64,000 nt of DNA from Alphaproteobacteria bacterium (GCA_965214705.1 OZ243972.1:1088001-1152000), one strand, 5' to 3'. Counted from the stretch's first letter, positions 23,361-35,202 are shown. The notes: generated by a model from the sequence alone, not told the origin. Made by a program: numbers and translations.

Positions 23361-24212
23361 TCAACCGATCCGGGCCATCACCCCGCCGTCGACCGGGAGC
23401 GCCACGCCGGTGATGAAGCGGCCGGCGTCGGAGGCGAGGAAGAGCGAGGCCTGGGCCACGTCCCAGGCGCTGCCCATGCCGCCCCTGAGCGGGCTCCAGG
23501 TGTCGCGGTCGGCGGCGATCTCCTCGCGCGGCTTGCCGTAGCGGCGGGCCTGCGTGTCCACCGCCATGGGCGTGTCCATGTAGCCCGGCAGGATGGCGTT
23601 CACGCGCACACCGTCGGGCGCGCAGTCGAGCGCAAGCTGTCGGGAGAAGGCGATCATCCCCGCCTTGCTGGTCTTGTAGGTGACCGACTTGTAGTCGACC
23701 ACGGCTGCAATCGACGAGATGTTGGTGATCACGCCGCTGCCCTGGCCGCGCATGACCGGGACCACGTGCTTGCAGGCCATCACCGTGCCGCGCAGGTTGA
23801 TCGCCATCACCCGGTCGAAGCTCGCCTCGTCGAGGTCGGCGAGCGGCGAATCCCCGCCGGTGTAAGCGACGCCCACGTTGTTCTGCAGCACGTCGATGCG
23901 CCCGTGCCGCTCGACGACCGAGCGGACGACAGCGAGCAGCGCCTGCTCATCGGTCACGTCGGCGACCATCGCCTCGGCGGCACCGCCTTCCGCCTGGATC
24001 ATGGTGGCAGTTTCCTCGGCGGACTTCCGGTCGCGGTCGAGTGCGACCACGTGCGCGCCGGCGCGGGCGAAGAGCACGCAGGCGGCGCGGCCGTTGCCGA
24101 TCACCGGCCCTGGCGTCTGGCCGGCGCCGGCGACGATCGCGACCCGGCCGTCGAGGCTCAGCGTCGGGCTTTGCCAGGGCGCCGCGATGGCGGCAGGGGA
24201 AGCTTCGGTCAT
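23361..24212 (-). CDS. Short-chain dehydrogenase/reductase
   Basis: GAGQTPGPVIGNG, NNVG, YKTSK, RVNAILPG. Confidence 0.9.
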   Translation of the reverse strand: MTEASPAAIAAPWQSPTLSLDGRVAIVAGAGQTPGPVIGNGRAACVLFARAGAHVVALDRDRKSAEETATMIQAEGGAAEAMVADVTDEQALLAVVRSVVERHGRIDVLQNNVGVAYTGGDSPLADLDEASFDRVMAINLRGTVMACKHVVPVMRGQGSGVITNISSIAAVVDYKSVTYKTSKAGMIAFSRQLALDCAPDGVRVNAILPGYMDTPMAVDTQARRYGKPREEIAADRDTWSPLRGGMGSAWDVAQASLFLASDAGRFITGVALPVDGGVMARIG

Positions 24213-24365: not shown

Positions 24366-25202
24366 ATGAAGATCGGCGCCGTCATCTTCGCCACAGACTA
24401 TTGCATCGCGCTGACCGAGCTCGCGCCTGCGCTTGAGGAGCGGGGGTTCGACTCGCTCTTCGTGCCCGAGCACACCCACATCCCCGCCAGCCGGCGCTCG
24501 CCCTGGCGGGGCGGCGGAGAGCTGCCACGGGAATACTCCCACACGCTCGACCCGTTCGTGGGCCTCGCGGCGGCTGCGGCGGTGACCAGCACGCTCCGCC
24601 TCGGCACCGGTATTTGCCTCGTGACCGAGCGCGACCCCATCGTCACGGCGAAGGCGGTGGCGAGCCTCGATCTGGTCTCCGGCGGGCGCTTCGACTTCGG
24701 TATCGGCGCGGGCTGGAATGCGGAAGAAATGGAGCACCACGGCACCCGCTTCGAGACCCGCTTTCGGGTCATGGAGGACCGGGTCAAGGCGATGCAGGCA
24801 CTCTGGGCTGCGGACGAGGCGAGCTACGAGGGCGAGTTCACGTCCTTCGAGCCGAGCTGGTCCTGGCCCAAGCCGGTGCAGAAGCCACATCCGCCGATCC
24901 TGCTGGGCGGCGAGTCCGTGCACACGATGCGCCGGATCATGGACTTCTGCTCGGGCTGGTTCCCGCGCGGCCCGCTTCTGCCCGATCCCGCAGACGGCAT
25001 GGCCAGGCTCCGCGCCGCCGCCGAAGAGGCCGGACGCGACCCGGCCACGGTGTCAGCCACGGTCTTCGGCGCCAAGCCAGAGGAAGGCTATCTCGCGGCC
25101 TGCCGGGAAGCCGGGATGGACCGTGCGCTGCTGATCCTGCCGCCGGACGGACGCGACGGGGTGATGCCGGTCGTCGATCGCTACGCGGCGCTCATCGGCT
25201 GA
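24366..25202 (+). CDS. Luciferase-like (LLM) oxidoreductase, F420-dependent-type family
   Basis: EERGFDSLFVPEHTHIP, AKAVASLDLVSGGR, GIGAGWNAEEM, PKPVQKPHPP. Confidence 0.88.
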   Translation: MKIGAVIFATDYCIALTELAPALEERGFDSLFVPEHTHIPASRRSPWRGGGELPREYSHTLDPFVGLAAAAAVTSTLRLGTGICLVTERDPIVTAKAVASLDLVSGGRFDFGIGAGWNAEEMEHHGTRFETRFRVMEDRVKAMQALWAADEASYEGEFTSFEPSWSWPKPVQKPHPPILLGGESVHTMRRIMDFCSGWFPRGPLLPDPADGMARLRAAAEEAGRDPATVSATVFGAKPEEGYLAACREAGMDRALLILPPDGRDGVMPVVDRYAALIG

Positions 25203-26676: not shown

Positions 26677-26947
26677 CTCCCAGCCCTCTGCGGTCGTGCC
26701 CCTGCCCCTTGTCCCGCGGGGCGGGCGGGCTACAGGGTACCGCCGCCTGCTCCTATCATGGGGTGGGTGACGACCGAATACCAGCACTTCCGCTATGTCG
26801 GAAGGCGCGCCCCGGTATGTCGCCGGCGGGCGAACCGGGTGGCGCGAGAACTCGGGCTATTCTGGCTTGTCGCTGCCTCTGTCCGGACTGTTCGGGGGTG
26901 CGCCGCCCGTGCTATAGGCGCGCGCCGACTTCAGGGAGAGAAACACG

Positions 26948-27286
26948 ATGGACGTGACGGTCGAGCGGCAGGACAGCGTGTTGATCGCCCGCGTGAACGG
27001 GCGGATCGATCCTAAAGGCGCCGGGTCGCTGGAGACGACGATCACGGCGGCGCTCCAGAATGGCGACCATGCCATCATCCTGGACTTCGAGCAGCTCACC
27101 TATATTGGTAACGTCGGCGTTCGGGCGCTGCGGATCACCGCTAGGGTCCTGCGCGACCGAGACGTCCGCATGGCCGTCTGCGCGCCGCAGGGTGTCGTCG
27201 CCGCGGTCTTCTCAGGCGGCGGTGTGGACAGGCTCATCGCGGTCTACCAGACCAGGGCCGCGGCGCTCGAGGCCCTCGACGACTGA
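26948..27286 (+). CDS. STAS-domain protein (anti-sigma factor antagonist)
   Basis: VNGRID, ILDFEQLTYIGNVGVR; GGGAGAG RBS. Confidence 0.85.
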   Translation: MDVTVERQDSVLIARVNGRIDPKGAGSLETTITAALQNGDHAIILDFEQLTYIGNVGVRALRITARVLRDRDVRMAVCAPQGVVAAVFSGGGVDRLIAVYQTRAAALEALDD

Positions 27287-27511
27287 CTGGGCGCCGCGGT
27301 CTTCTCGGCCGCCCGCCACAGCGAAGGGGAGGATGGCCGCCGAATTGCAGCCCCTCTGGTATGCCACTCGCGCATATGTGACTGCCCGCGGGGTTGGCAC
27401 GCGCTATGATCGTTCGTATCGTTCCGCCCCGTCCGGTAGCAGGGACTGGGCGAGGACATGAGATTTCCCACGGGGGCCCAGAGCGGCGCCCGCCCTCCCA
27501 GGGGGTAGAGA

Positions 27512-27724
27512 GTGGACGCGGCACGTATCGTCATCGAGGTCCTGCAGTACTACGGCTATGTCGGGCTCGCCGTCACGGCCGCGTTTCTGCTCTATGGCAT
27601 CGAGCGGGTGGATGAGGGCGCGCGGCGCTCCTACGCTTTTCGGCCGCTGCTCATCCCCGGCTGCATCGTGCTCTGGCCGCTGGTGATCTGCCGCTGGGTC
27701 GCGGCGGAACGGCAGCGCGGCTGA
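27512..27724 (+). CDS. Small two-helix membrane protein
   Basis: 70 aa, two hydrophobic stretches, FRPLLIPGCIVLWP; first gene of a tight operon. Confidence 0.7.
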   Translation: MDAARIVIEVLQYYGYVGLAVTAAFLLYGIERVDEGARRSYAFRPLLIPGCIVLWPLVICRWVAAERQRG

Positions 27725-27737
27725 GCGGTCCCTCGCC

Positions 27738-27917
27738 ATGCAGCGCCGCCACCGCACTGCCCATGCCTACATGTGGAAGGTTCTCGCGGTCTTCCTGCCC
27801 GCGATGCTGATCGCGGCGCTCGCCATTCGCCAGCACGGGCCGACGGAGAAATCCGCCGTCCAGATCGAAAAGCCCGGAGCGCAAGCCGAAGCGCCCGCCG
27901 CCACGGCGGACGAGTAA
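27738..27917 (+). CDS. Small single-pass membrane protein (59 aa, absent from ORF track)
   Basis: MQRRHRTAHAYMWKVLAVFLPAMLIAALAIRQ...ATADE; fills the gap with 13- and 15-nt spacers. Confidence 0.7.
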   Translation: MQRRHRTAHAYMWKVLAVFLPAMLIAALAIRQHGPTEKSAVQIEKPGAQAEAPAATADE

Positions 27918-27932
27918 GGAGGCGGCTGAGCG

Positions 27933-29015
27933 ATGAGCGTGCGTTACGCGCCGGTCGGCTGGAACCGCAACAAGACCGTCTACGACGTCATGGTGCTCGC
28001 CGCCGCCGTTGCCTACATCCTGCTCTACATCAAGATCGCGCCGGGCTTCCAGGACGTCACCAAGCCGACCAGCGGGGCGATCCTGCGGGCGCAGGCCTTC
28101 GGCACCTGTGCCTTCCTGATGCTCACGTTCATCCTCTGCATCGGGCCGCTCGCACGCCTGGATGCGCGCTTCCTGCCGCTGCTCTACAACCGTCGCCACT
28201 TCGGCGTGATCACGTGCGCCATCGCCTTCACCCATGCCACGCATGTGGTCAGCATCTATTACTCGTTCAGCCCGCTGAACAAGTACGTCGCGGTGCTGGC
28301 GAGCAACACGAGCTACGACCGCTTCCTCGGCTTCCCGTTCGAGACCTTCGGCATCTTCGCGCTCTTCCTGCTGCTGGTGCTCGCGGCCACGAGCCACGAC
28401 TTCTGGCTCAAGTTCCTGACACCGCCGATCTGGAAGGCGATCCACATCTCGGTCTACGTCGCCTATGCGGCGATCGTCTGCCATGTGGCGCTCGGCTCCC
28501 TGCAGTCGAAGCAAAGCCCGCTGCTCGCGGTCATTGTGGGCTTGAGCGTGGTGGCGGTCACCGGCCTGCATCTGGTCGCCGGGCGTATCGAGCGGCAGAA
28601 GGACCGCAACACGGCGGAGAGCGCCGAGGAGAGTACCGACGAGGAGCCCTGGGTCGTCGCCGGCGATGTGGACTCCGTGCCCGATGGCCGCGGCATCGTC
28701 GTGCCGCTGGAGGACGGCGAGCGCGTCGCGGTGTTCCGCTACGACGACAAGCTGTCGGCGCTCGCCAACGTCTGCGCCCATCAGAACGGGCCGCTCGGCG
28801 AAGGGCGCATCATGGACGGTTGCGTGACCTGCCCGTGGCACGGCTTCCACTACCGGCCGGAGGATGGCTGCGCGCCGCCGCCCTTCACCGAGAAGGTCGC
28901 GACCTATCGGCTCAAGCTGGACGGCCGGCGGATCCTGCTCGACCCGCGGGCCAACGAGCCCGGCACCTATGTCGAGCCCGTGCGCATCGCTCCCCCGAGC
29001 GTGACGGAGGCGTAA
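27933..29015 (+). CDS. Ferric reductase/MsrQ-like heme-b membrane domain fused to a C-terminal Rieske [2Fe-2S] domain
   Basis: About 6 TM helices with LYNRRHFGV, ATSHD, WKAIH..CHVALG; Rieske CAHQNGPLGEG..CPWHGF; AAGGAGG RBS. Confidence 0.88.
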   Translation: MSVRYAPVGWNRNKTVYDVMVLAAAVAYILLYIKIAPGFQDVTKPTSGAILRAQAFGTCAFLMLTFILCIGPLARLDARFLPLLYNRRHFGVITCAIAFTHATHVVSIYYSFSPLNKYVAVLASNTSYDRFLGFPFETFGIFALFLLLVLAATSHDFWLKFLTPPIWKAIHISVYVAYAAIVCHVALGSLQSKQSPLLAVIVGLSVVAVTGLHLVAGRIERQKDRNTAESAEESTDEEPWVVAGDVDSVPDGRGIVVPLEDGERVAVFRYDDKLSALANVCAHQNGPLGEGRIMDGCVTCPWHGFHYRPEDGCAPPPFTEKVATYRLKLDGRRILLDPRANEPGTYVEPVRIAPPSVTEA

Positions 29016-29016
29016 C

Positions 29017-29805
29017 ATGGCAGGCAGGGCGCGTGATCCCGGCTTCTTCGTCGGCTACCTGAACAACGTGCCGCGCCCGCTCGCGATCTTCCTGGTGGTC
29101 GGTGCTGCCGTGCTCGTGGGCGGCATGGCTGGACTGGCCTTCGCTCTCGGCACCAACGTCAACGACCCCGGCGACGGCACGTTCGCCCGCAAGCTCGGAA
29201 AACAGGAGATGACCGGGGTTCTGCTGGAGAAGCCCTATCCGATCCTCCGCGTGCGCCCGGACGCGAAAAATCCCGAAGCCCGGACGATCATGCTCACCGT
29301 GCCCGGCAAGCGCAGCGTCAAGCGCCGCGGTCGCAAGCTCTTCGACCAGCTCGTCGACGTGAAGGGCTTCATGTTCCAGCGCGGCGACATCGACATGCTG
29401 CAGGTCCAGGGCAAGGGCGCGCTGAAGGCCGTGGAGGTCGCCGAAGGGGAGCCGCCGCCCGAATTCACCCCGGCGCCCGCAGAATCCCTCGGCCGCTGGC
29501 GCCTCATCGGCGAGATCTGCGACAGCAAGTGCCATCTGGGCGCCATGCGGCCGGGCGACGGGCTCGCGCACAAGGCCTGCGCCAATCTCTGCATCTCCTC
29601 CGGCGCACCGCCGATCTTCGTCACGGCAGACGAAGGCGCGGTCGAGGGCGAGACCTTCCTGCTGATGGCCGATCAGGACGGCGGGCCGCTCCCCGATCAC
29701 TTCGGCGACTATGTGGCGATCCTCATTCAGCTCGAAGGCGAGGTCGAACGGCTCGACGATCTGCTGGTCTTCAAGGTCGATATCGACGCGGCCAAGGTGT
29801 TCTGA
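29017..29805 (+). CDS. Membrane-anchored Cys/His-rich hypothetical protein
   Basis: N-terminal TM; motif GEICDSKCHLGAMRPGDGLAHKACANLC; 1-nt gap to upstream gene. Confidence 0.8.
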   Translation: MAGRARDPGFFVGYLNNVPRPLAIFLVVGAAVLVGGMAGLAFALGTNVNDPGDGTFARKLGKQEMTGVLLEKPYPILRVRPDAKNPEARTIMLTVPGKRSVKRRGRKLFDQLVDVKGFMFQRGDIDMLQVQGKGALKAVEVAEGEPPPEFTPAPAESLGRWRLIGEICDSKCHLGAMRPGDGLAHKACANLCISSGAPPIFVTADEGAVEGETFLLMADQDGGPLPDHFGDYVAILIQLEGEVERLDDLLVFKVDIDAAKVF

Positions 29806-29808
29806 GCG

Positions 29809-30060
29809 ATGAAGCGAGTCGCCTGGATTATCGCCGGCGCGATCGTAACCGCAGGCCTCGGCTACGCCTCCTACTGGGTCTATCTGGAGGTGCAGCAGCA
29901 GGTTCGCGGCACGCTCATTTCAGGCTTCGGCATCTTCGTCGGCGTCATGGGTGCCTTCGCCATGCTCGGCGTGGCCCACATCGTCTTCACCTACGCCGAG
30001 CGCCTGCTGTGCAAGCGCAAGACGCCCCCGGCCGAAGACAAGACTCCAGAGGGCGCGTGA
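29809..30060 (+). CDS. Small two-helix membrane protein
   Basis: 83 aa, two hydrophobic segments, 3-nt gap to upstream gene. Confidence 0.65.
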   Translation: MKRVAWIIAGAIVTAGLGYASYWVYLEVQQQVRGTLISGFGIFVGVMGAFAMLGVAHIVFTYAERLLCKRKTPPAEDKTPEGA

Positions 30061-30113
30061 CGATCGAATAGACGCGGCACGCGAGCCGTTCAGTGGCGGG
30101 AGGCAGGGTCCCC

Positions 30114-31724
30114 ATGAACAAGATCGCGATCAAGACGCTCGACGAGTTGGAAGACCGACAGCCGGCCTACGCGCTGGTCGGCGAGGTCGATCTCTGTGTC
30201 GTGCGCTACGACGATAACGTCTCGGTCTTCTACGGCCGCTGCCTGCACCGGGGCGCGCTCATGGCCGACGGCTACGTCGACGGCGAGAACCTGATCTGCG
30301 GCGTCCACTATTGGGACTACCGCCTCGATACCGGTGTCAGCGAATACAACAACGAGGAAATCCTGCCCAAGTTCGCGTCGTGGATTGAGGACGGCCAGGT
30401 CCTGGTCGATGCGGACGAGATCGGCGCTTGGGAGGAGGACCATCCGCAGCCCTTCAAGCGGGGCGAGTACCTCGGCCTCTACGCCGACACCCACCCCGCG
30501 GCCGAGGAGCCCCACGTTGGGCTGATCCAGGGCTACGCCAAGGACGGTCTCAGCAAGACTGGCCATCATGGCGTCGTGGTGGCCATGGGCGTGCCGCGCC
30601 AGGACCTGCCGAGCTGGGACGATATCCAGTTCATCACGGCGCAACTCCACCGCATGCCGCACCTGGATGACGAGCCTGTCGCCACCGAGGTGGTGATCGG
30701 CCCCAACGCCCAAAAACCGCTCACCCTCGGGATTCCGCTCCTGGTCTCGGACATGAGTTTTGGGGCGCTCTCGGAGCCCGCCAAGGTCTCGCTCGCGCGC
30801 GGCGCCGAGCTTTCCGGCACCGGCATCTGCTCGGGCGAGGGCGGCATGCTGCCGGAGGAGCAGCAGGCGTGCAGCCGCTACTTCTACGAGTATGCCTCGG
30901 GCCGCTTCGGCTTCTCCTGGGACAAGCTGGAGAACGTCCAAGCCTTCCATTTCAAGGGCGGTCAGGGCGCCAAGACCGGCACCGGCGGGCATCTGCCGGG
31001 CAACAAGGTGAGGGGCAAGATCGCCGAGGTGCGGGGGCTGCCGGAAGGCTCGCCGGCGGTCTCGCCGCCGCGCTTCCCGGACTGGACCGACTGGCGCCAG
31101 GTGCGGGACTTCGCCGACGAGGTGCGCAGCCATACCGGCGGCATCCCGATCGGCTATAAGCTCTCGGCCCAGCACATCGAGAAGGACATCGACGCTGCGC
31201 TCGAGGTCGGCGTCGATTACATTATCCTGGATGGCCGGGGCGGCGGCACGGGCGCTGCGCCGCTCATCTTCCGCGACAACATCTCGGTGCCGACCATCCC
31301 GGCGCTGGCGCGGGCGCGCCGCCATCTGGACGCGTCCGAGCGCCAGGACGTGACGCTGGTGATCACGGGGGGCCTGCGCAAGCCCGCCGATTTCGCCAAG
31401 GCGCTGGCGCTCGGCGCGGATGCGGTCGCGGTTTCCAACGCCGCGATCCAGGCGATCGGCTGCCTCGGCATGCGCGCCTGCCACACCAACAACTGCCCGG
31501 TCGGTATCGCGACCCAGAAGCCGAGTCTGACCGCGCGGATCGAGGTCGAGAAGTCGGCGCGGCGCCTTGCCAACTTCTTCGAGGCGAGCGTCGAGCTGAT
31601 GAAGATCATGGCGCGTGCCTGTGGGCATTCGCACCTGAACCAGCTCGCGCTCGACGATCTCGAGACCTGGAAAGAGGATATGGCGCGGCTGTCGGGCGTC
31701 GCCTACGGCGGCGTCGGCGGCTAA
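30114..31724 (+). CDS. Rieske domain fused to a glutamate-synthase FMN-binding domain
   Basis: Rieske CLH..CGVH; SDMSFGALS, SGEGG, KGGQGAKTGTGG, DGRGGGTGAAP; CLGMRACHTNNC ([3Fe-4S]-type); no amidotransferase domain. Confidence 0.88.
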   Translation: MNKIAIKTLDELEDRQPAYALVGEVDLCVVRYDDNVSVFYGRCLHRGALMADGYVDGENLICGVHYWDYRLDTGVSEYNNEEILPKFASWIEDGQVLVDADEIGAWEEDHPQPFKRGEYLGLYADTHPAAEEPHVGLIQGYAKDGLSKTGHHGVVVAMGVPRQDLPSWDDIQFITAQLHRMPHLDDEPVATEVVIGPNAQKPLTLGIPLLVSDMSFGALSEPAKVSLARGAELSGTGICSGEGGMLPEEQQACSRYFYEYASGRFGFSWDKLENVQAFHFKGGQGAKTGTGGHLPGNKVRGKIAEVRGLPEGSPAVSPPRFPDWTDWRQVRDFADEVRSHTGGIPIGYKLSAQHIEKDIDAALEVGVDYIILDGRGGGTGAAPLIFRDNISVPTIPALARARRHLDASERQDVTLVITGGLRKPADFAKALALGADAVAVSNAAIQAIGCLGMRACHTNNCPVGIATQKPSLTARIEVEKSARRLANFFEASVELMKIMARACGHSHLNQLALDDLETWKEDMARLSGVAYGGVGG

Positions 31725-31957
31725 GGGGGACCCACGCCCGCACTGGCAGGTGCCACAAACACCTCACGAACGCCTCGTTCGCAGTCGGAATCTCTGTACA
31801 CTGCACTGCCGTTGCATCTAAAATCGAAGTCGCTTATTCATGGGTTGAAAAGCACGTAAATTTGCATTGTGTCATATGAGATAAAGCACAAACGAACCAG
31901 AGAAACATCCAATGACATGGAGTATACTGCACGTCCACTCCCGTAGATACTCGAGCG

Positions 31958-33139
31958 ATGTCCGATCAAAACCAAATTGATGTAGACGAGTTAAGGAAAA
32001 GACGCGTACCTTGCGTTGTTTCTTTTCTGCACCCATTTCGAATTGTAAATGATTCTGAATCTCCCGACTGGTGCGTCTCGCTGGATCAAGTAAACACTGC
32101 GACATGGGATTATGTCGCTTTGCATGAGATGGTCGGCGGAATCGATGTCGGCCTTGAATCTCCGTATCATATGGTCGTGTGCCGCGATGGCGGCATTGCG
32201 CTGCCATTGATTCCCGAACTCCGGGAGAACCAAGCTGCCGTTGAGTTCTTCAATCGGTGTTTGGCCTCCATTTTGCTGGGAGGGGTCTATTGCGAGGCGA
32301 TTACATCTGACGGTCTTGATTTCGGATCAGTCCTGGATTGGAAATATGTGCGTGTGGCTAGTTGCGCCTCGGCGGCTGCCAATCGATTCCACTTTCTGAT
32401 TCGGGGTCAACATGCTTCTCCAGTGGAAGCGATTGCGCTCGAAGAGCCCAGACAGATTTCGATCGAAGAGCTTGCGAAGGCAGCGCACAAGGGACGCCTT
32501 GTGTTGGAAAACGCCCCAGGCGTTGGCGGCGAATTCTTGCTTAAGGGCGTTACAAGTTACGCGCGGAGAGACTGGGGAACAGCACTCGCCAATTTATGGA
32601 TTGTCGTTGAGCAACTTACATCCCATCTTTGGTCTGAGAGAGTTATAGGACCGGCCAGACAGTCGCAAGTTATTGACGGTCGAATTGATGGCCTTAAAGA
32701 TAACAGGACCTGGACGATCTCTACACGCCACGAAATGTTGTTTCAGACGAATGTTCTCGATGCAGAACTTTACGCGTCTCTTATAGTGGCGAGGAAATCG
32801 AGAAACCAACTATCGCATGACGGGAGGCATCCTAGCGAGAGTGGCGCTACCGCTGCCATATCTTCTGTGAAAAACCTACTACAAGTATTGCTTCCGGGTC
32901 TCGAAATCCCGTTTGTCGACATGGATCTAAGCGATCATGCGATTTCTGATCCCTTTAGGCCTATAGAAACTCCATTATTGAGTCCGAAATATTGGATGGA
33001 TATAAGGAAGCTTCCTGGGGAAACTGAACTCGAAAAACTAGACCCAAGTTGGCACTTTTCCGCTGCCTGTGTTCCCTATTGGTTTGATTCAACGCGATAT
33101 TTTTCTCGGTCGATTCCAACATGGCCCCACATTTTGTGA
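31958..33139 (+). CDS. AT-richer HEPN-motif protein; native C-terminus displaced by an IS
   Basis: Helical C-terminal half WGTALANLWIVVEQ...RKSRNQLSH (RxxxxH); codons from 33043 onward are IS-derived. Confidence 0.7.
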   Translation: MSDQNQIDVDELRKRRVPCVVSFLHPFRIVNDSESPDWCVSLDQVNTATWDYVALHEMVGGIDVGLESPYHMVVCRDGGIALPLIPELRENQAAVEFFNRCLASILLGGVYCEAITSDGLDFGSVLDWKYVRVASCASAAANRFHFLIRGQHASPVEAIALEEPRQISIEELAKAAHKGRLVLENAPGVGGEFLLKGVTSYARRDWGTALANLWIVVEQLTSHLWSERVIGPARQSQVIDGRIDGLKDNRTWTISTRHEMLFQTNVLDAELYASLIVARKSRNQLSHDGRHPSESGATAAISSVKNLLQVLLPGLEIPFVDMDLSDHAISDPFRPIETPLLSPKYWMDIRKLPGETELEKLDPSWHFSAACVPYWFDSTRYFSRSIPTWPHIL

Positions 33140-35202
33140 GATTCTGTCAGCTCATCAGACGGGTCCTCGTGCGGTGGATGGCGGGGTCCACGCCCGCCGC
33201 CGAGGAGATTGCGGCAACCTCGGCGGCCGGGCGCGTGTCCTGGCGGTTGACGATCAAGGTGCCGTCGGTCTGGCGCAGGCGCGTGGTGATCCGCACCCAG
33301 GTCCGCATGCTCTCGCGGATCGACGCCCAGCACTTGTGGATGCCGCGCGCGGCCAGCCGGGTACGGATCAGATGCACGGCGTGGTAGGCCAGCACGGCGA
33401 TCAGCAGGTGGGCCGCGATGCGCCGGTCGAGCTGGTGCCAGATCGGGCGAAGGCCGAGCTCGGATTTCAGGCTCCGGAATGTCGCCTCGATATCCGTGAT
33501 CCGCCAGTACGTCCGCAGGACCGTCTCGATGTCCCAGTCGACGTGGCTGGTGCGCAGCACATAGGCACCGGCGCCCTCATCGGCCTCGTCGTATCGCGGC
33601 CTGCGCTTGAAGCGCACGGCGGTGGCATTGGGGCCGGTTTTCGCCCTCTCGACCGTGATCTCGTAGTGCCTGGCGACGGCGGAGAAGCGCTGCTTGAGGC
33701 GGCCTATGCTCTCCAGCACCTTGTCGTAGCGCTTGAGGCGGCCCTTGACCGGGAGGCCGCCGTGGAGCCTTTCCAGCGCCGCCTCGAAGCGGTTCCGCCT
33801 CAGGCCGATGATCGCGTTCTCGGCCTTCTTCTTGCCCTCGCTGACGACGTAGAGCCGCGCCTCGCCGTCCTCGCTGGCAAGCCGCCAGGCCCGCACCTCG
33901 TGGCGCGCGCTGGTGATCAGCAGGGCCTCGGGTCCGCCCTCGGGCGGCGCAGGCCTGGCACCGCGGCTGACCGCGATCCAGTCGTAGCCCTGCTCGCCCA
34001 GCCACGCGATGTTTTTCTCGGTGGCGATGCCCGCGTCCATGACCACCGTGGGCTTCGGCGCCGTGCCGCCGCACACCGCCTCGAGCCGCGCCAGCGCCTC
34101 GTGCAGCGTGCCCGGCTCGCTCACGTTGCCCGGCAGGATCTCGCAACTGCGCGGGAAGCCCGCGCCGTCGAGCGCCAGCGCCAGCGTGATGAGGGGACAG
34201 TCGTCGCGCTTCTGCTTGGAGCGCCCGAACCTGGGAAGCTCGCCGCCCGTGTGGCCGTGGTAGTGGACGTTGGTGAGATCGTAGAAGGCGATCGTCTCGG
34301 GCAGGTCGAGCAGTGCGCGCTCACGGTTGAACAGCTCCCGCTGGATGGCGGCGCGGTGGCGCCAGAGCAGGTCGCCGATGCGGTAGAGCGTCTTGCGCCG
34401 CAGCGCCTTGCGGTCGCCCTCCAGGCCCAGGAGCTCGGCGGCCGCGCTGTCGTGGCGGAGCCAGCGGCTGGTATCACGCTCGCTGGCGGGATGGACCATC
34501 CTGGCGACGATCAGCGCGCTGGCGATGCGCCCGTCGCGGCCCTTGATGTCGAGGCCGTGGAGGATTTCGGCGAAGCCGAGGGCGTCGAGGGCCTTGAGGC
34601 ACAGGCGCTCGCAGCCGACCGTGCGCGGGTTCTCGTGCTCCAGGGTATCGAGGTCGACGGTGGCGATGTCGGGCTTGCGCGCCTCTTCCTGCATCGCCTC
34701 GACGCGGAACCCCCTGGCCCTGAGCTTGGCGACGATGTCCTCGGCTGCGGCCCGCACATCCGCCTCGCCCTCGAACAGCGGCGGCTTGCCGTGAAGCAGC
34801 GCCTCGGCGAGTTCGGTGACGGCCTTCCACTTCTCGCGCGGCACCGGATAGTCGGTGCCGAGATTGAGCAGCGTCCTGTGGCGCACCTTGTCGCCGACGC
34901 GCTGGGCGAGCACGAGGCGATGGCTTCGGACCGGCTGGCCGGCCTTGTCGGTGTGTGTCCTGGTTGCCTTGATGTACATGGCGGCGCCGTTTCTGCGATG
35001 CCTGTTTCGCATACACGGCGTTCGCGGCATCTGGCAAGAGGGATATCGACTCAACTCCAAAGTCCTGGCCCCACAATTGGCTTCCAGGACCACGAATGGC
35101 AAATGTGGGTCTCAGGTGTCCTCCAACCCCAACATCTAGTGGTTCAGCGCCGCAAAACTGGCTCGAACAGGCTCGGCTGGTCGGAAAAAGTGCCAACTTG
35201 GG
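33043..35202 (-). mobile_element. IS1634-family insertion sequence, 2160 bp
   Basis: Terminal IRs CCCAAGTTGGCACTTTT / AAAAGTGCCAACTTGGG; TAGA duplicated at 33039-33042 and 35203-35206. Confidence 0.9.
33147..34979 (-). CDS. IS1634-family DDE transposase
   Basis: MYIKAT..LLNLG, FYDLTNVHY, FGRSKQKRDDCP, VVMDAGI, IEATFRSLKSELGLRPIWH. Confidence 0.9.
   Translation of the reverse strand: MYIKATRTHTDKAGQPVRSHRLVLAQRVGDKVRHRTLLNLGTDYPVPREKWKAVTELAEALLHGKPPLFEGEADVRAAAEDIVAKLRARGFRVEAMQEEARKPDIATVDLDTLEHENPRTVGCERLCLKALDALGFAEILHGLDIKGRDGRIASALIVARMVHPASERDTSRWLRHDSAAAELLGLEGDRKALRRKTLYRIGDLLWRHRAAIQRELFNRERALLDLPETIAFYDLTNVHYHGHTGGELPRFGRSKQKRDDCPLITLALALDGAGFPRSCEILPGNVSEPGTLHEALARLEAVCGGTAPKPTVVMDAGIATEKNIAWLGEQGYDWIAVSRGARPAPPEGGPEALLITSARHEVRAWRLASEDGEARLYVVSEGKKKAENAIIGLRRNRFEAALERLHGGLPVKGRLKRYDKVLESIGRLKQRFSAVARHYEITVERAKTGPNATAVRFKRRPRYDEADEGAGAYVLRTSHVDWDIETVLRTYWRITDIEATFRSLKSELGLRPIWHQLDRRIAAHLLIAVLAYHAVHLIRTRLAARGIHKCWASIRESMRTWVRITTRLRQTDGTLIVNRQDTRPAAEVAAISSAAGVDPAIHRTRTRLMS

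Follow-up and report, generated by a model that had tools for sequence, protein, structure and literature searches.

Glutamate synthase normally works in the reductive direction under physiological conditions, and pyruvate oxidase (PoxB) catalyzes an irreversible, electron-donating reaction, handing its electrons to membrane ubiquinone. Passages of PMC12525009 describe the membrane protein MsrQ as an exporter of cytoplasmic electrons, with a heme at about −250 mV and an FMN at about −340 mV, for which ubiquinol would be an unfeasible donor; the heme ligands and FMN-pocket residues of MsrQ are used below as they are defined there. A passage of Zhang et al. 2013 (PMC3591440) gives metal reduction as a classical FRD function, and an FRD-plus-Rieske architecture appears in one of its figure legends.

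The locus described here lies in a 64,000-nucleotide window (the whole stretch of alphaproteobacterial DNA that was analyzed) and encodes a functionally unstudied bacterial membrane system. The system is real and widely conserved, and it probably carries electrons from an internal iron-sulfur center, through a membrane heme, to a novel protein on the outside. A reading of the window made beforehand from the sequence only had recognized no characterized complex of such composition, and full-text literature searches likewise found no functional study of one. That sequence-only reading was partly supported: co-occurrence of the genes and the composition stood and the domains fit a path from Rieske center to heme to periplasmic partner, but the six-gene unit and the two-heme wire did not hold.

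Organization of the locus

Six co-oriented ORFs (g1 to g6) occupy positions 27512 to 31724 of the + strand, with gaps of 13, 15, 1, 3, and 53 nt, as first reported and as borne out by the ORF listing. The domains and motifs predicted at that stage (the heme domain, two Rieske domains, a Cys/His site, an FMN domain, and a [3Fe-4S]-type motif) were present according to Pfam, NCBIfam, and ligand conservation. The operon was also correctly described as containing neither an FNR domain nor MsrP. In Pfam searches, g3 matched only Ferric_reduct and Rieske, with no FAD/NAD(P)H dehydrogenase domain, and no Oxidored_molyb match, oxygenase, or ferredoxin reductase was detected among the six ORFs. Metatranscriptome contigs from two runs, belonging to relatives (88 to 99% alike) and possibly reflecting DNA carry-over, covered 27 and 22 of the 30 bins between positions 26800 and 32000 and spanned the g2-g3 and g5-g6 junctions. 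These contigs are a hint of operon expression.

The g3 protein, a heme-Rieske fusion

The g3 gene (27933 to 29015) encodes a 360-residue protein comprising a six-helix ferric-reductase/MsrQ-like heme b domain (residues 1 to 216) and a predicted cytoplasmic Rieske [2Fe-2S] domain (residues 240 to 325; nt 28650 to 28907). Pfam Ferric_reduct matched residues 57 to 181 (E = 8e-12; 45.7 bits versus a gathering score of 28), and the Rieske match was above the cutoff (E = 5.7e-14). A hydropathy scan revealed six transmembrane segments (residues 19 to 37, 55 to 73, 90 to 108, 134 to 152, 169 to 187, and 197 to 215), indicating that both ends of g3 are on one side of the membrane. An N-in/C-in orientation would follow from the topology of the FRD family; the charge bias is mild, with loop K/R counts of 3 at the N terminus, followed by 2, 4, 2, 2, and 1.

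Alignment with E. coli MsrQ by hhalign (probability 72%, E = 3.4e-5) paired R87/R88 of g3 with R77/R78, H101 with H91, W167 with W147, H171 with H151, and H184 with H164. Among 61 sequences, H101 and H184, the outer-heme pair of TM3 and TM5, were invariant, as were R87, R88, W167, and H171, which match the flavin-pocket residues of MsrQ. The Arg-Arg pair of TM3 is located 14 and 13 residues ahead of the heme His, as in MsrQ. A single bis-His heme site (H101/H184) is supported by the alignment, and the cytoplasmic site of g3 looks like the flavin pocket of MsrQ, not like a second heme. At the position of the NOX inner-heme His, g3 has the invariant R87, and H89 is two residues out of register. 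The initial proposal of an MsrQ-like protein relaying electrons through hemes was sustained for the likeness to MsrQ but not for the two-heme wire, which gave way to one heme and a flavin-type pocket. On the inner side of g3, three further invariant histidines (H89, H155, and H213) are not accounted for, and a noncanonical second heme is possible.

By sequence, g3 is MsrQ-like and is not an MsrQ ortholog, its score against the NCBIfam MsrQ equivalog NF003831 (32.5 bits, E = 5.9e-8) not reaching the cutoff of 130. The profile of the transmembrane domain retrieved no solved FRD structure by sequence. The Rieske ligands, C281-A-H283 and C300-P-W-H303, were invariant in the 61 sequences, and the best solved relative of this domain was 2E4P (E = 2.8e-9).

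The g4 protein and the small membrane proteins

The product of g4 (29017 to 29805; 262 residues) is predicted to be an N-terminally anchored periplasmic protein with two β-barrel (OB-like) domains. The net charge is +1.8 before the helix and −0.6 after it (61 sequences), a bias that indicates an N-in/C-out orientation. A conserved Cys/Met/His cluster at residues 168 to 192 (nt 29518 to 29592), C168-x3-C172...M177...H185-x2-C188-x3-C192, was invariant or nearly so in the 61 sequences; its cysteines could instead form structural disulfides. No family was found for g4 in Pfam or NCBIfam. Its homologs numbered 951, and all source names shown among the best 120 were "hypothetical protein," most entries being unnamed. 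The AF2 model (pLDDT 86.7) displayed the two barrels and had no PDB match at E ≤ 1e-3 by Foldseek, the best VIA Z score (7.6) being obtained with generic OB folds over residues 54 to 150. Similarity to SilF (VIA Z, 6.2 to 6.4) and CusF (Foldseek E of about 0.08 to 0.09) extended only over residues ~58 to 140 and was in the range of unrelated OB folds; this comparison reached the first domain and barely covered the second, which contains the Cys/His/Met cluster.

The g1 gene (27512 to 27724; GTG start) encodes a membrane protein of 70 residues that has two hydrophobic stretches as well as the conserved loop GI(D/E)R(I/V)DE.AR..Y.FRPLL.P....WP.V..RW. The g2 gene (27738 to 27917) encodes a single-pass membrane protein of 59 residues whose basic N terminus (QRRHRTAH) and acidic tail would be located inside and outside, respectively, based on hydropathy and charge bias. 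Neither protein matched a Pfam or NCBIfam family. In other lineages, g2 corresponds to the C-terminal third of a fused g1-g2 protein, which formed one ORF of at least 100 residues in 43 of 79 loci; g2 was a separate tblastn match in 32 of 80. The g5 gene (29809 to 30060) encodes a small protein of 83 residues with two hydrophobic stretches, of which one contains a hydropathy window above the threshold (residues 32 to 50) and the other is N-terminal. This protein is a shortened ortholog of the 87- to 114-residue protein found after g4 elsewhere, with the common motif (Q/W)(V/L)RGT, and its only family match, to DctQ, was below the threshold (E = 0.026; 14.9 bits versus a cutoff of 28.3).

A conserved core and an optional client

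Gene neighborhoods were compared among 80 related loci, which represent several orders of Alphaproteobacteria, and co-occurrence was analyzed in a 300-genome sample of the class. The g1 gene was beside g3 in 79 of the 80 loci and g4 in 78, the single g1 miss and the two g4 misses all being at contig ends. Such an arrangement is not due to chance. A g5-type gene followed g4 in 53 of the 80 loci. In the class sample, the 12 genomes with g3 were also those with g4, the two genes being neighbors in every one (12/12); neither was found in the other 288. The neighborhood analysis of the heme-Rieske fusion, proposed beforehand as a check, thus showed that the genes co-occur elsewhere. Among the 150 best representatives of the family, three (P0306, P0361, and P0388) were natural g3-g4 fusions. 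In these, FRD is followed by Rieske, the F(F/Y)VGY motif, a transmembrane helix, and the g4 domain, an order that places the membrane between the Rieske and g4 domains. Both kinds of fusion, g1-g2 and g3-g4, support association of the gene products.

In 41 of the 80 loci, g6 adjoined the core; its position was downstream of g5 in some cases and directly upstream of g1 in others. It was present in 6 of 12 core-positive versus 4 of 288 core-negative genomes. Conversely, 6 of the 12 core carriers had no g6, and of the 10 genomes with full-length g6, 4 had no core, 3 of these encoding the Rieske-ThDP enzyme described below. In the core genomes without g6 or this enzyme (6/12), no other Rieske ORF was found within about 8 kb. 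The conserved core is g1-g5 and g6 is an optional client, so the six genes do not form the self-contained chain initially proposed.

The g6 enzyme and the Rieske-ThDP enzyme

The g6 ORF opens at a GTG (30093), and the ATG at 30114 agrees with the MNK... start of homologs. The resulting 536-residue protein (30114 to 31724), which has no transmembrane segment according to the hydropathy scan, is a soluble Rieske plus glutamate-synthase-type FMN enzyme. The Rieske match (residues 5 to 75; nt 30126 to 30338) was above the Pfam cutoff (E = 1.3e-10), and its ligands, C43-L-H45 and C62-G-V-H65, were invariant in 23 sequences. Glu_synthase (PF01645) matched residues 194 to 504 (nt 30693 to 31625; E = 1.6e-88), and residues ~210 to 511 could be aligned with the FMN domain in GltS large chains of solved structure (E between 5.5e-34 and 8.9e-28). 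The C-x5-C-x4-C-P motif (C450, C456, and C461; nt 31461 to 31496), at least 90% conserved, aligned with the cysteines of the [3Fe-4S] cluster in 7MFM and 2VDC. Pfam detected neither a GATase_2 amidotransferase nor a GXGXG domain in g6, Glu_syn_central was under its cutoff (18.8 versus 22.8 bits), and the NCBIfam GltS large-subunit model gave 125 bits versus a cutoff of 1047. Homologs of g6 are 71 to 94% identical across genera. In close homologs devoid of the Rieske domain (66 to 73% identity), two CDGSH [2Fe-2S] domains replaced it in 3 of 3, indicating that the N-terminal domain behaves as an exchangeable one-electron relay. Liv-type amino-acid ABC transporters are neighbors of g6-family genes in two contexts, one of which also contains an Asp/Glu racemase; in a third context, the neighbors are a Na:alanine symporter and an asparaginase. 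These amino-acid uptake genes suggest a role in catabolism.

A second Rieske-fused enzyme (660 residues), found in 30 of the 80 loci, combines an N-terminal Rieske domain with all three ThDP-enzyme domains. Its closest solved relative is pyruvate oxidase/PoxB (PDB 3EYA/3EY9; E = 1.1e-57 for 3EYA), and it scored below every NCBIfam cutoff, including that of "pyruvate oxidase" (365 versus 742 bits). Nine of the 10 genomes of the class sample with full-length g6 also encoded this enzyme, the lone exception being 67% complete; three of the nine had no membrane core. In the core-less genome G175, the two are neighbors in divergent orientation, and both are present at 24 of the 80 loci. Contrary to the assignment of g6 to a six-gene unit, g6 thus travels more faithfully with the Rieske-ThDP enzyme. 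In this genome, no counterpart was found with the query used, and its 12 closest loci likewise have g6 and the core and no ThDP enzyme.

Proposed electron path and alternatives

The reading that we favor, to which we give about an even chance, is that g1-g5 form one membrane complex acting as an MsrQ-like electron exporter, with g6 as a detachable amino-acid-oxidizing client. The domain content and predicted topology fit a path from a cytoplasmic Rieske center through a membrane heme to a periplasmic partner, and the topology check suggested beforehand, based on the six helices of g3 and the charge bias of g4, agrees with this path. The gene set, the domains and ligands with their conservation, the two kinds of fusion, and the MsrQ-type residue pattern are observed; we infer the topology, from hydropathy and charge bias, as well as a physical complex, the way the electrons flow, and the substrate of g6. 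Single electrons would enter at the Rieske domain of g3 and pass to the inner-face flavin-type pocket (R87, R88, W167, and H171), to the bis-His heme b near the outer face (H101/H184), and then to the periplasmic Cys3/His/Met site of the anchored g4, which would fill the place of the molybdoenzyme MsrP in MsrPQ. The g1/g2 and g5 proteins would be small accessory subunits, and g4 may in the end reduce a redox substrate in the periplasm or a metal ion. The FMN/[3Fe-4S] domain of g6 would convert an amino-acid-like substrate to the imino/2-oxo acid, in the reverse of a glutamate-synthase half-reaction, and its N-terminal Rieske domain would pass electrons to that of g3. Elsewhere, the Rieske-ThDP enzyme would be a second client, possibly using the 2-oxo acid from g6. 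The PoxB likeness of this second client and the amino-acid uptake neighbors favor the oxidative direction at g6. We likewise infer this direction and the fate of the electrons, for which g4, the quinone pool, and other acceptors are considered below.

Several observations run counter to this reading. Half of the core carriers have neither g6 nor the ThDP enzyme, and identity between the two Rieske domains (g3 and g6) is only ~25%. The three genomes with g6 and the ThDP enzyme but no core fit direct transfer from the latter enzyme to g6, which would then be a reductase, the normal direction for glutamate synthase. According to this rather unlikely alternative, electrons from 2-oxo-acid decarboxylation by the ThDP enzyme would flow from Rieske to Rieske domain and on to the [3Fe-4S]/FMN centers of g6, reducing an imine to an amino acid, and the membrane module would be an optional overflow or alternative partner. 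The near-constant company of the two enzymes (9 of 10 genomes), their divergent adjacency in G175, and their joint presence at 24 loci all favor it. However, this genome and its 12 closest loci combine g6 with the core and no ThDP enzyme, and g6 would here take electrons from the membrane module or another Rieske reductase. Electron import via an FRD/MsrQ-type domain would oppose the membrane potential, and no member of the family is known to do this. The absence from g6 of the amidotransferase and GXGXG domains that glutamate synthase has and the neighboring amino-acid uptake genes also argue against a reductase.

The favored reading of an exporter delivering electrons to g4 can also be questioned at its outer end. 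Export by the core could instead serve an orphan MsrP or metal ions (Cu2+/Fe3+, as for FRE/STEAP), g4 being a metal-binding adaptor and g6 one of several interchangeable inputs, which we consider distinctly unlikely. This genome encodes a bona fide MsrP (NCBIfam, 404 bits; cutoff, 207) about 900 kb from the operon, no msrQ-like ORF was found downstream of msrP, and g3 is the sole PF01794 (Ferric_reduct) or MsrQ-model match in its 7.9 Mb. G298 and G220 show the same picture, which was thus seen in 3 of the 5 core-positive genomes to which the MsrQ model was applied, this genome included, a count that covers core-positive genomes only. Every tested MsrQ cofactor residue is kept in g3, metal reduction is a classical activity in the cited passage of PMC3591440, and the first domain of g4 resembles OB folds, among them those of CusF and SilF, Cu/Ag chaperones of the periplasm, but with generic scores expected of unrelated proteins. 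Moreover, msrP was unlinked to the module in 6 of 6 genomes examined, and the strictly co-inherited, sometimes fused partner is g4, not MsrP. It is improbable that the module acts as a membrane anchor delivering electrons from Rieske-tagged dehydrogenases to the quinone pool, like the SdhCD anchor or PoxB, with no transmembrane transfer and a structural g4. The solved protein closest to the second client, PoxB, does deliver electrons to membrane ubiquinone. Passages of PMC12525009 also report that MsrQ binds a quinone, but not as the redox partner of its heme (about −250 mV). No quinone-site motif was identified, and this proposal leaves unexplained why a periplasmic protein with a Cys/His/Met site is strictly conserved and, in some cases, fused to g3. 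Finally, the core can be found without g6 and g6 without the core, as mere neighbors would be, but the absence of any functional system is hardly credible, since gene order is kept across several orders (78 to 79 of 80 loci), two independent gene fusions exist, and spacing is tight or overlapping. For g1-g5, gene order, fusions, and spacing contradict it.

Comparison with known systems

The MsrPQ (YedYZ) system of E. coli has in common with g3 a six-helix FRD-type domain with the same heme ligands and inner-pocket residues. In both systems, a dedicated partner gene with a predicted periplasmic product is beside that of the membrane subunit, and electron flow out of the cytoplasm into the periplasm is presumed for g3 by analogy. 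Unlike MsrQ, which depends on the soluble flavin reductase Fre, g3 has a fused cytoplasmic Rieske domain. The partner differs as well, g4 being an anchored two-barrel Cys/His/Met protein with no Moco domain, and the small subunits g1/g2 and g5 are additional. Within the NOX/FRE/STEAP FRD superfamily, to which the Ferric_reduct score above gathering assigns g3, the protein differs from NOX/FRE by the lack of an FAD/NADPH dehydrogenase domain. The inner-heme His position of NOX is occupied by an Arg, as in MsrQ and STEAP, and g3 has the features of the MsrQ/STEAP subgroup (one heme plus flavin) and not the four canonical histidines of NOX/FRE.

The g6 enzyme shares its FMN domain and three cluster cysteines with the glutamate synthase alpha subunit and its stand-alone relatives (such as the FMN subunit of N-methylglutamate synthase). 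In contrast to glutamate synthase, g6 carries an N-terminal Rieske domain in place of the amidotransferase, has no GXGXG domain, and has no central-domain match above the threshold. The Rieske-ThDP enzyme has the same three ThDP domains as PoxB (pyruvate:quinone oxidoreductase), to which an N-terminal Rieske domain is added. The Rieske-type ferredoxins of aromatic-ring dioxygenases (such as BphF), the best solved relatives of the g3 Rieske domain, have the same CxH...CxxH ligands as this domain, whereas the Rieske domains described here are fused to a membrane heme domain or to flavoenzymes.

Results

Six co-oriented genes of the + strand (g1 to g6) occupy positions 27512 to 31724 of the window, with intergenic gaps of 13, 15, 1, 3, and 53 nt in the ORF listing. 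g1, g2, and g5 encode small membrane proteins of 70, 59, and 83 residues, respectively, g3 encodes a protein of 360 residues, and g4 encodes a membrane-anchored Cys/His/Met protein of 262 residues. The g6 ORF is open from GTG 30093, and ATG 30114, which is the start in homologues, affords a protein of 536 residues. Pfam analysis revealed a Ferric_reduct domain (residues 57 to 181; E = 8e-12) and a Rieske domain (residues 240 to 325; E = 5.7e-14) in g3, and a Rieske domain (residues 5 to 75; E = 1.3e-10) and the glutamate synthase FMN domain PF01645 (residues 194 to 504; E = 1.6e-88) in g6. g1, g2, and g4 matched no family of Pfam or NCBIfam, and g5 gave only a DctQ match below the threshold (E = 0.026).

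A promoter scan returned one weak sigma-70-like site (27394 to 27422) and a terminator scan returned no + strand terminator inside the operon, the counts being close to the shuffled expectation in both scans. A hint of co-transcription is provided by contigs of two metatranscriptome runs (88 to 99% alike), which lie on 27 and 22 of the 30 bins of the region 26800 to 32000, one contig bridging g5 and g6 and another bridging g2 and g3. These contigs come from relatives and may reflect DNA carry-over, and the uncovered bins (e.g., 27148 to 27495 in run X1) are no evidence of transcript ends. The runs are labelled sponge and coral metagenome; judged from these labels, the carriers may be host-associated marine bacteria.

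A STAS-domain protein of 112 residues is encoded 225 nt upstream of g1 (26948 to 27286, + strand; Pfam E = 1.6e-16). Of the 14 closest loci (L001 to L014), 13 keep its gene at that place; the gene is not conserved there in more distant loci and may encode a clade-specific regulator. The upstream neighbors located between 23361 and 26787 code for an SDR (23361 to 24212, - strand), a luciferase-like monooxygenase (24366 to 25202, + strand), and a cytochrome P450 (25192 to 26787, - strand), and homologous ORFs are confined to loci from the same clade as the window. Directly 3′ of g6, the G+C content falls to about 58% in a segment (31800 to 35102) that contains a 393-residue ORF without a Pfam match (31958 to 33139) and a DDE transposase gene (33147 to 35102, - strand) and is likely an insertion at the operon 3′ end.

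Searching the genomes of 185,579 species with g3 yielded 248 relatives, and 80 loci were kept. Their labels are alphaproteobacterial or unresolved Pseudomonadota, except for L028 (Nitrosovibrio) and L045 (Bifidobacterium), and the groups represented include Rhodospirillales MAGs, Hyphomicrobiales, Parvibaculaceae, and Rhodobacterales. Roseovarius conchicola and Jannaschia faecimaris DSM 100420 are culturable bacteria among the carriers, and Roseibium spp. appear among the source names of the g4 and g6 homologues. Neighbors were counted by tblastn within 6 kb on either side, the flanks being incomplete in 26 loci. g1 was found beside g3 in 79 of the 80 loci and g4 in 78, with both misses at contig edges, whereas a g5-type gene was found in 53 loci, g6 in 41, a 660-residue enzyme combining a Rieske domain with a pyruvate-oxidase-like ThDP enzyme in 30, and a CPA-type cation/proton antiporter gene in 13. 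In 43 of 79 loci, a single fused protein of about 120 to 125 residues takes the place of separate g1 and g2 proteins. The protein encoded 3′ of g4 elsewhere has 87 to 114 residues; g5 is its shortened orthologue and has an RGT motif in common with it.

An even draw from the class gave 300 further genomes, 12 of which contain g3. Exactly the same 12 contain g4, adjoining g3, and the remaining 288 lack it. The g4 profile gave 10 matches, all assigned to the same class, in a phylum-level sample of 400 genomes, a count that gives no measure of the spread to other classes or phyla. An HMMER pass of the profile over 1.84 billion representatives put the size of the g4 family at 2,044 representative proteins or clusters at E ≤ 1e-3 (1,594 at E ≤ 1e-10); among the best 150 of these 2,044, three (P0306, P0361, and P0388) combine Ferric_reduct, Rieske, and g4 domains in one polypeptide. 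The two independent fusions (g1-g2 and g3-g4) and the near-perfect synteny argue that the conserved core, g1 to g5, would form one complex. The gene order, spacing, and domains listed by the sequence-only reading were confirmed by the ORF listing, Pfam, and alignments, and the genes also co-occur in other genomes.

The assembly of the window's genome (G000) comprises 7.92 Mb in 3 contigs, with 98.47% completeness and 8.72% contamination. Two genomes of its family, of 3.3 Mb each, are without g3, g4, and g6. An internal stop was detected in one g4 gene (L040:7062-7829) and an in-frame TAG in one Rieske-ThDP gene (G175:C119:3629-5593); both could stem from errors in the MAGs or from decay of the gene copies.

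Passages of PMC12525009 assign residues H91 and H164 of MsrQ to the ligation of a single outer heme and residues R77, R78, W147, and H151 to the lining of an FMN pocket, R77 occupying the position of the inner-heme histidine in NOX. Alignment of g3 with E. coli MsrQ (from NC_000913.3) by hhalign (probability of 72%; E = 3.4e-5) matched R87, R88, H101, W167, H171, and H184 of g3 with R77, R78, H91, W147, H151, and H164 of MsrQ, respectively. Because all six aligned residues are invariant, g3 is predicted to be an MsrQ/STEAP-like protein with one outer heme and a flavin-type inner pocket rather than a canonical di-heme ferric-reductase domain (FRD), and a two-heme reading of the membrane domain was not retained. 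Nonetheless, g3 is not an orthologue of MsrQ, since it scores 32.5 bits versus a cutoff of 130. Residues H89, H155, and H213, which lie on the inner side, are also invariant and could conceivably belong to a non-canonical second heme. Comparison of the g3 transmembrane-domain profile with PDB sequences gave a chance antibody match only, and the FRD fold of g3 is derived from sequence profiles. Passages of the same source indicate potentials of about -250 mV for the heme and about -340 mV for the FMN of MsrQ, and a supply of electrons from the cytoplasm, not from ubiquinol. By analogy, these potentials and this electron source support an outward electron flow through g3.

The six hydrophobic segments of g3 leave both protein ends on one side of the membrane, and an N-in/C-in orientation, as in the FRD family, would place the Rieske domain in the cytoplasm. 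At the N-terminus of g4 lies a single helix, with a net charge of +1.8 before and -0.6 after it (61 sequences); in the g3-g4 fusions, this helix directly follows the Rieske domain. Together, the segments of g3, the charge bias, and the fusion order put the body of g4 in the periplasm in the predicted topology.

The AF2 model of g4 (pLDDT, 86.7; pTM, 0.76) comprises a helix and two β-barrel domains. Foldseek returned no match to this model in the PDB at E ≤ 1e-3, and the VIA-align matches were all to generic OB folds, with a best Z of 7.6 and coverage of residues 54 to 150. The conserved cluster consists of C168-x3-C172, M177, and H185-x2-C188-x3-C192; the first Cys is lost in distant members, leaving a Cys3/His/Met set. 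A c-type heme site at the C-D-S-K-C-H motif was considered and rejected, since its His is not conserved (consensus C-D-G-K-C-Y/x). Comparison of the g4 profile with PDB sequences gave nothing meaningful, and Pfam comparison of 61 members gave weak matches to DUF5818 (7/61) and DUF5666 (2/61). The clusters returned by an Atlas search share no Pfam family; the best of them carries the automatic name "DUF5666 domain-containing protein," and the source names of the family were all "hypothetical protein" among the matches listed.

The FMN domain of g6 matches those of solved glutamate synthases (7MFM, E = 5.5e-34; 2VDC, E = 1.6e-28), and its C450-x5-C456-x4-C461-P motif aligns with the [3Fe-4S] cysteines of these structures. 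Among 23 homologues, the three cysteines and the Rieske ligands show little or no variation. Homologues from different genera show 71 to 94% identity, and the only names that they bear are "glutamate synthase-related" and "Rieske domain-containing." In the window's clade, the gene is located 3′ of g5; Hyphomicrobiales and Rhodobacterales have it immediately 5′ of g1. Five genomes had no g6 in the 6 kb around g3, and four of them encode a full-length orthologue farther off, at distances from 17 kb to about 1 Mb. In two genomes, genes of the g6 family adjoin Liv-type amino acid ABC transporters, with an Asp/Glu racemase also present in one of the two, and in a third they adjoin a Na:alanine symporter and an asparaginase. 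The CPA antiporter gene (K+/H+ antiporter-like, Na_H_Exchanger) lies directly upstream of g6 in the 13 loci and in three further contexts. It occupies this position at L108:5363-6616, L107:4920-6203, and L111:6016-7287, and also in G175, a genome without the membrane core; at L046:4471-5607, it lies directly upstream of g1.

The Rieske-ThDP enzyme, a second candidate client of the core, contains all three ThDP-enzyme domains and most resembles E. coli PoxB (3EYA, E = 1.1e-57), with a score of 365 bits against the NCBIfam "pyruvate oxidase" model (cutoff of 742). Its Rieske domain is 33 to 40% identical to that of g3, whereas the Rieske domains of g3 and g6 are only about 25% identical. A recent duplication of a single domain as the source of all three was considered and not retained. 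In G000, no counterpart was found with the query used: all ThDP matches start after query residue 110, and the sole match to its Rieske part is g3. Three g6 homologues with 66 to 73% identity over the FMN domain have two CDGSH [2Fe-2S] domains instead of the Rieske domain (L134:7776-9440, - strand; L135:6291-8048, + strand; L136:813-2321, - strand). An 865-residue ThDP enzyme (L115:7321-9918, + strand) carries Fer4_19, two CDGSH, and Rieske domains in series before the ThDP domains. This replacement and this serial arrangement suggest that the N-terminal domains of g6 and of the ThDP enzyme behave as exchangeable one-electron relays.

The core, full-length g6, and the Rieske-ThDP enzyme were present in 12, 10, and 13 of the 300 genomes of the class sample, respectively. 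All three occurred together in six genomes, the core alone in six, g6 with the ThDP enzyme in three, g6 alone in one (67% complete), and the ThDP enzyme alone in four. Loci with the core alone lacked a further Rieske ORF over about 8 kb. The core thus occurs without g6 in 6 of 12 genomes and g6 without the core in 4 of 10, which does not bear out the proposal that the six genes form a self-contained chain.

Discussion

The mechanism that we propose, with about an even chance of being correct, is that oxidation by g6 is connected by Rieske relays and g3 to periplasmic g4. The FMN of g6 would oxidize an amino acid-like substrate and pass electrons via the [3Fe-4S] cluster and the Rieske center of g6 to the Rieske center of g3. 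Electrons would then reach the inner pocket and the outer heme of g3 and, finally, periplasmic g4 at its Cys3/His/Met site.

The co-occurrence of g6 with the Rieske-ThDP enzyme in 9 of 10 genomes could alternatively mean that g6 is a reductase fed by that enzyme, but G000 combines g6 with the core, and the ThDP enzyme was not found there; we regard this direction of flow as unlikely. The periplasmic acceptor could also be something other than g4. G000 encodes a bona fide MsrP (404 bits versus a cutoff of 207 for NCBIfam NF003767) outside the window, on contig C1 (about 213,100 to 214,350; L139:1303-2550, minus strand), with no msrQ adjoining and no msrQ-like ORF downstream, and g3 is the only match to the Ferric_reduct or MsrQ model in this 7.9-Mb genome. 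G298 and G220 similarly have an orphan MsrP, so that this situation holds for three of the five genomes with the core to which the MsrQ model was applied. However, msrP was not linked to the module in any of the six genomes examined, and an acceptor other than g4 appears doubtful to us. Delivery of electrons to the quinone pool is quite improbable, and we give practically no credence to the genes being chance neighbors.

Beyond the route from g6 to g4, we tentatively envision a modular form of electron export, a broader reading that we consider possible though not the likelier outcome. Flavoenzymes acting on amino acids and 2-oxo acids would dock, via exchangeable [2Fe-2S] plugs of the Rieske or CDGSH type, on a Rieske-tipped MsrQ-like conduit powering g4, a new periplasmic Cys3/His/Met family. 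If so, a new periplasmic reductase chemistry would be fed directly by the oxidation of central metabolites, bypassing NAD(P)H and quinones.

A figure legend of Zhang et al. 2013 (PMC3591440) names Rieske as one of the fusion partners of bacterial FRDs. Full-text literature searches yielded no functional study of the g1-to-g6 system and no characterized complex of this composition, as the sequence-only reading had supposed. Finding the reduction target of g4 would define a new periplasmic redox function. If g6 and the ThDP enzyme do feed the conduit, the oxidation of amino acids and 2-oxo acids would be connected to the periplasm without NAD(P)H and possibly without quinones.

FRD/MsrQ-type proteins are a known outward route for electrons, which they deliver to oxygen (NOX), metals (FRE and STEAP), or a repair enzyme (MsrP). 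The system described here has the same conduit but differs from these known systems by a built-in iron-sulfur input, by a strictly co-inherited periplasmic partner, g4, of no known family, and, in many genomes, by dedicated soluble flavoenzymes with matching iron-sulfur domains.
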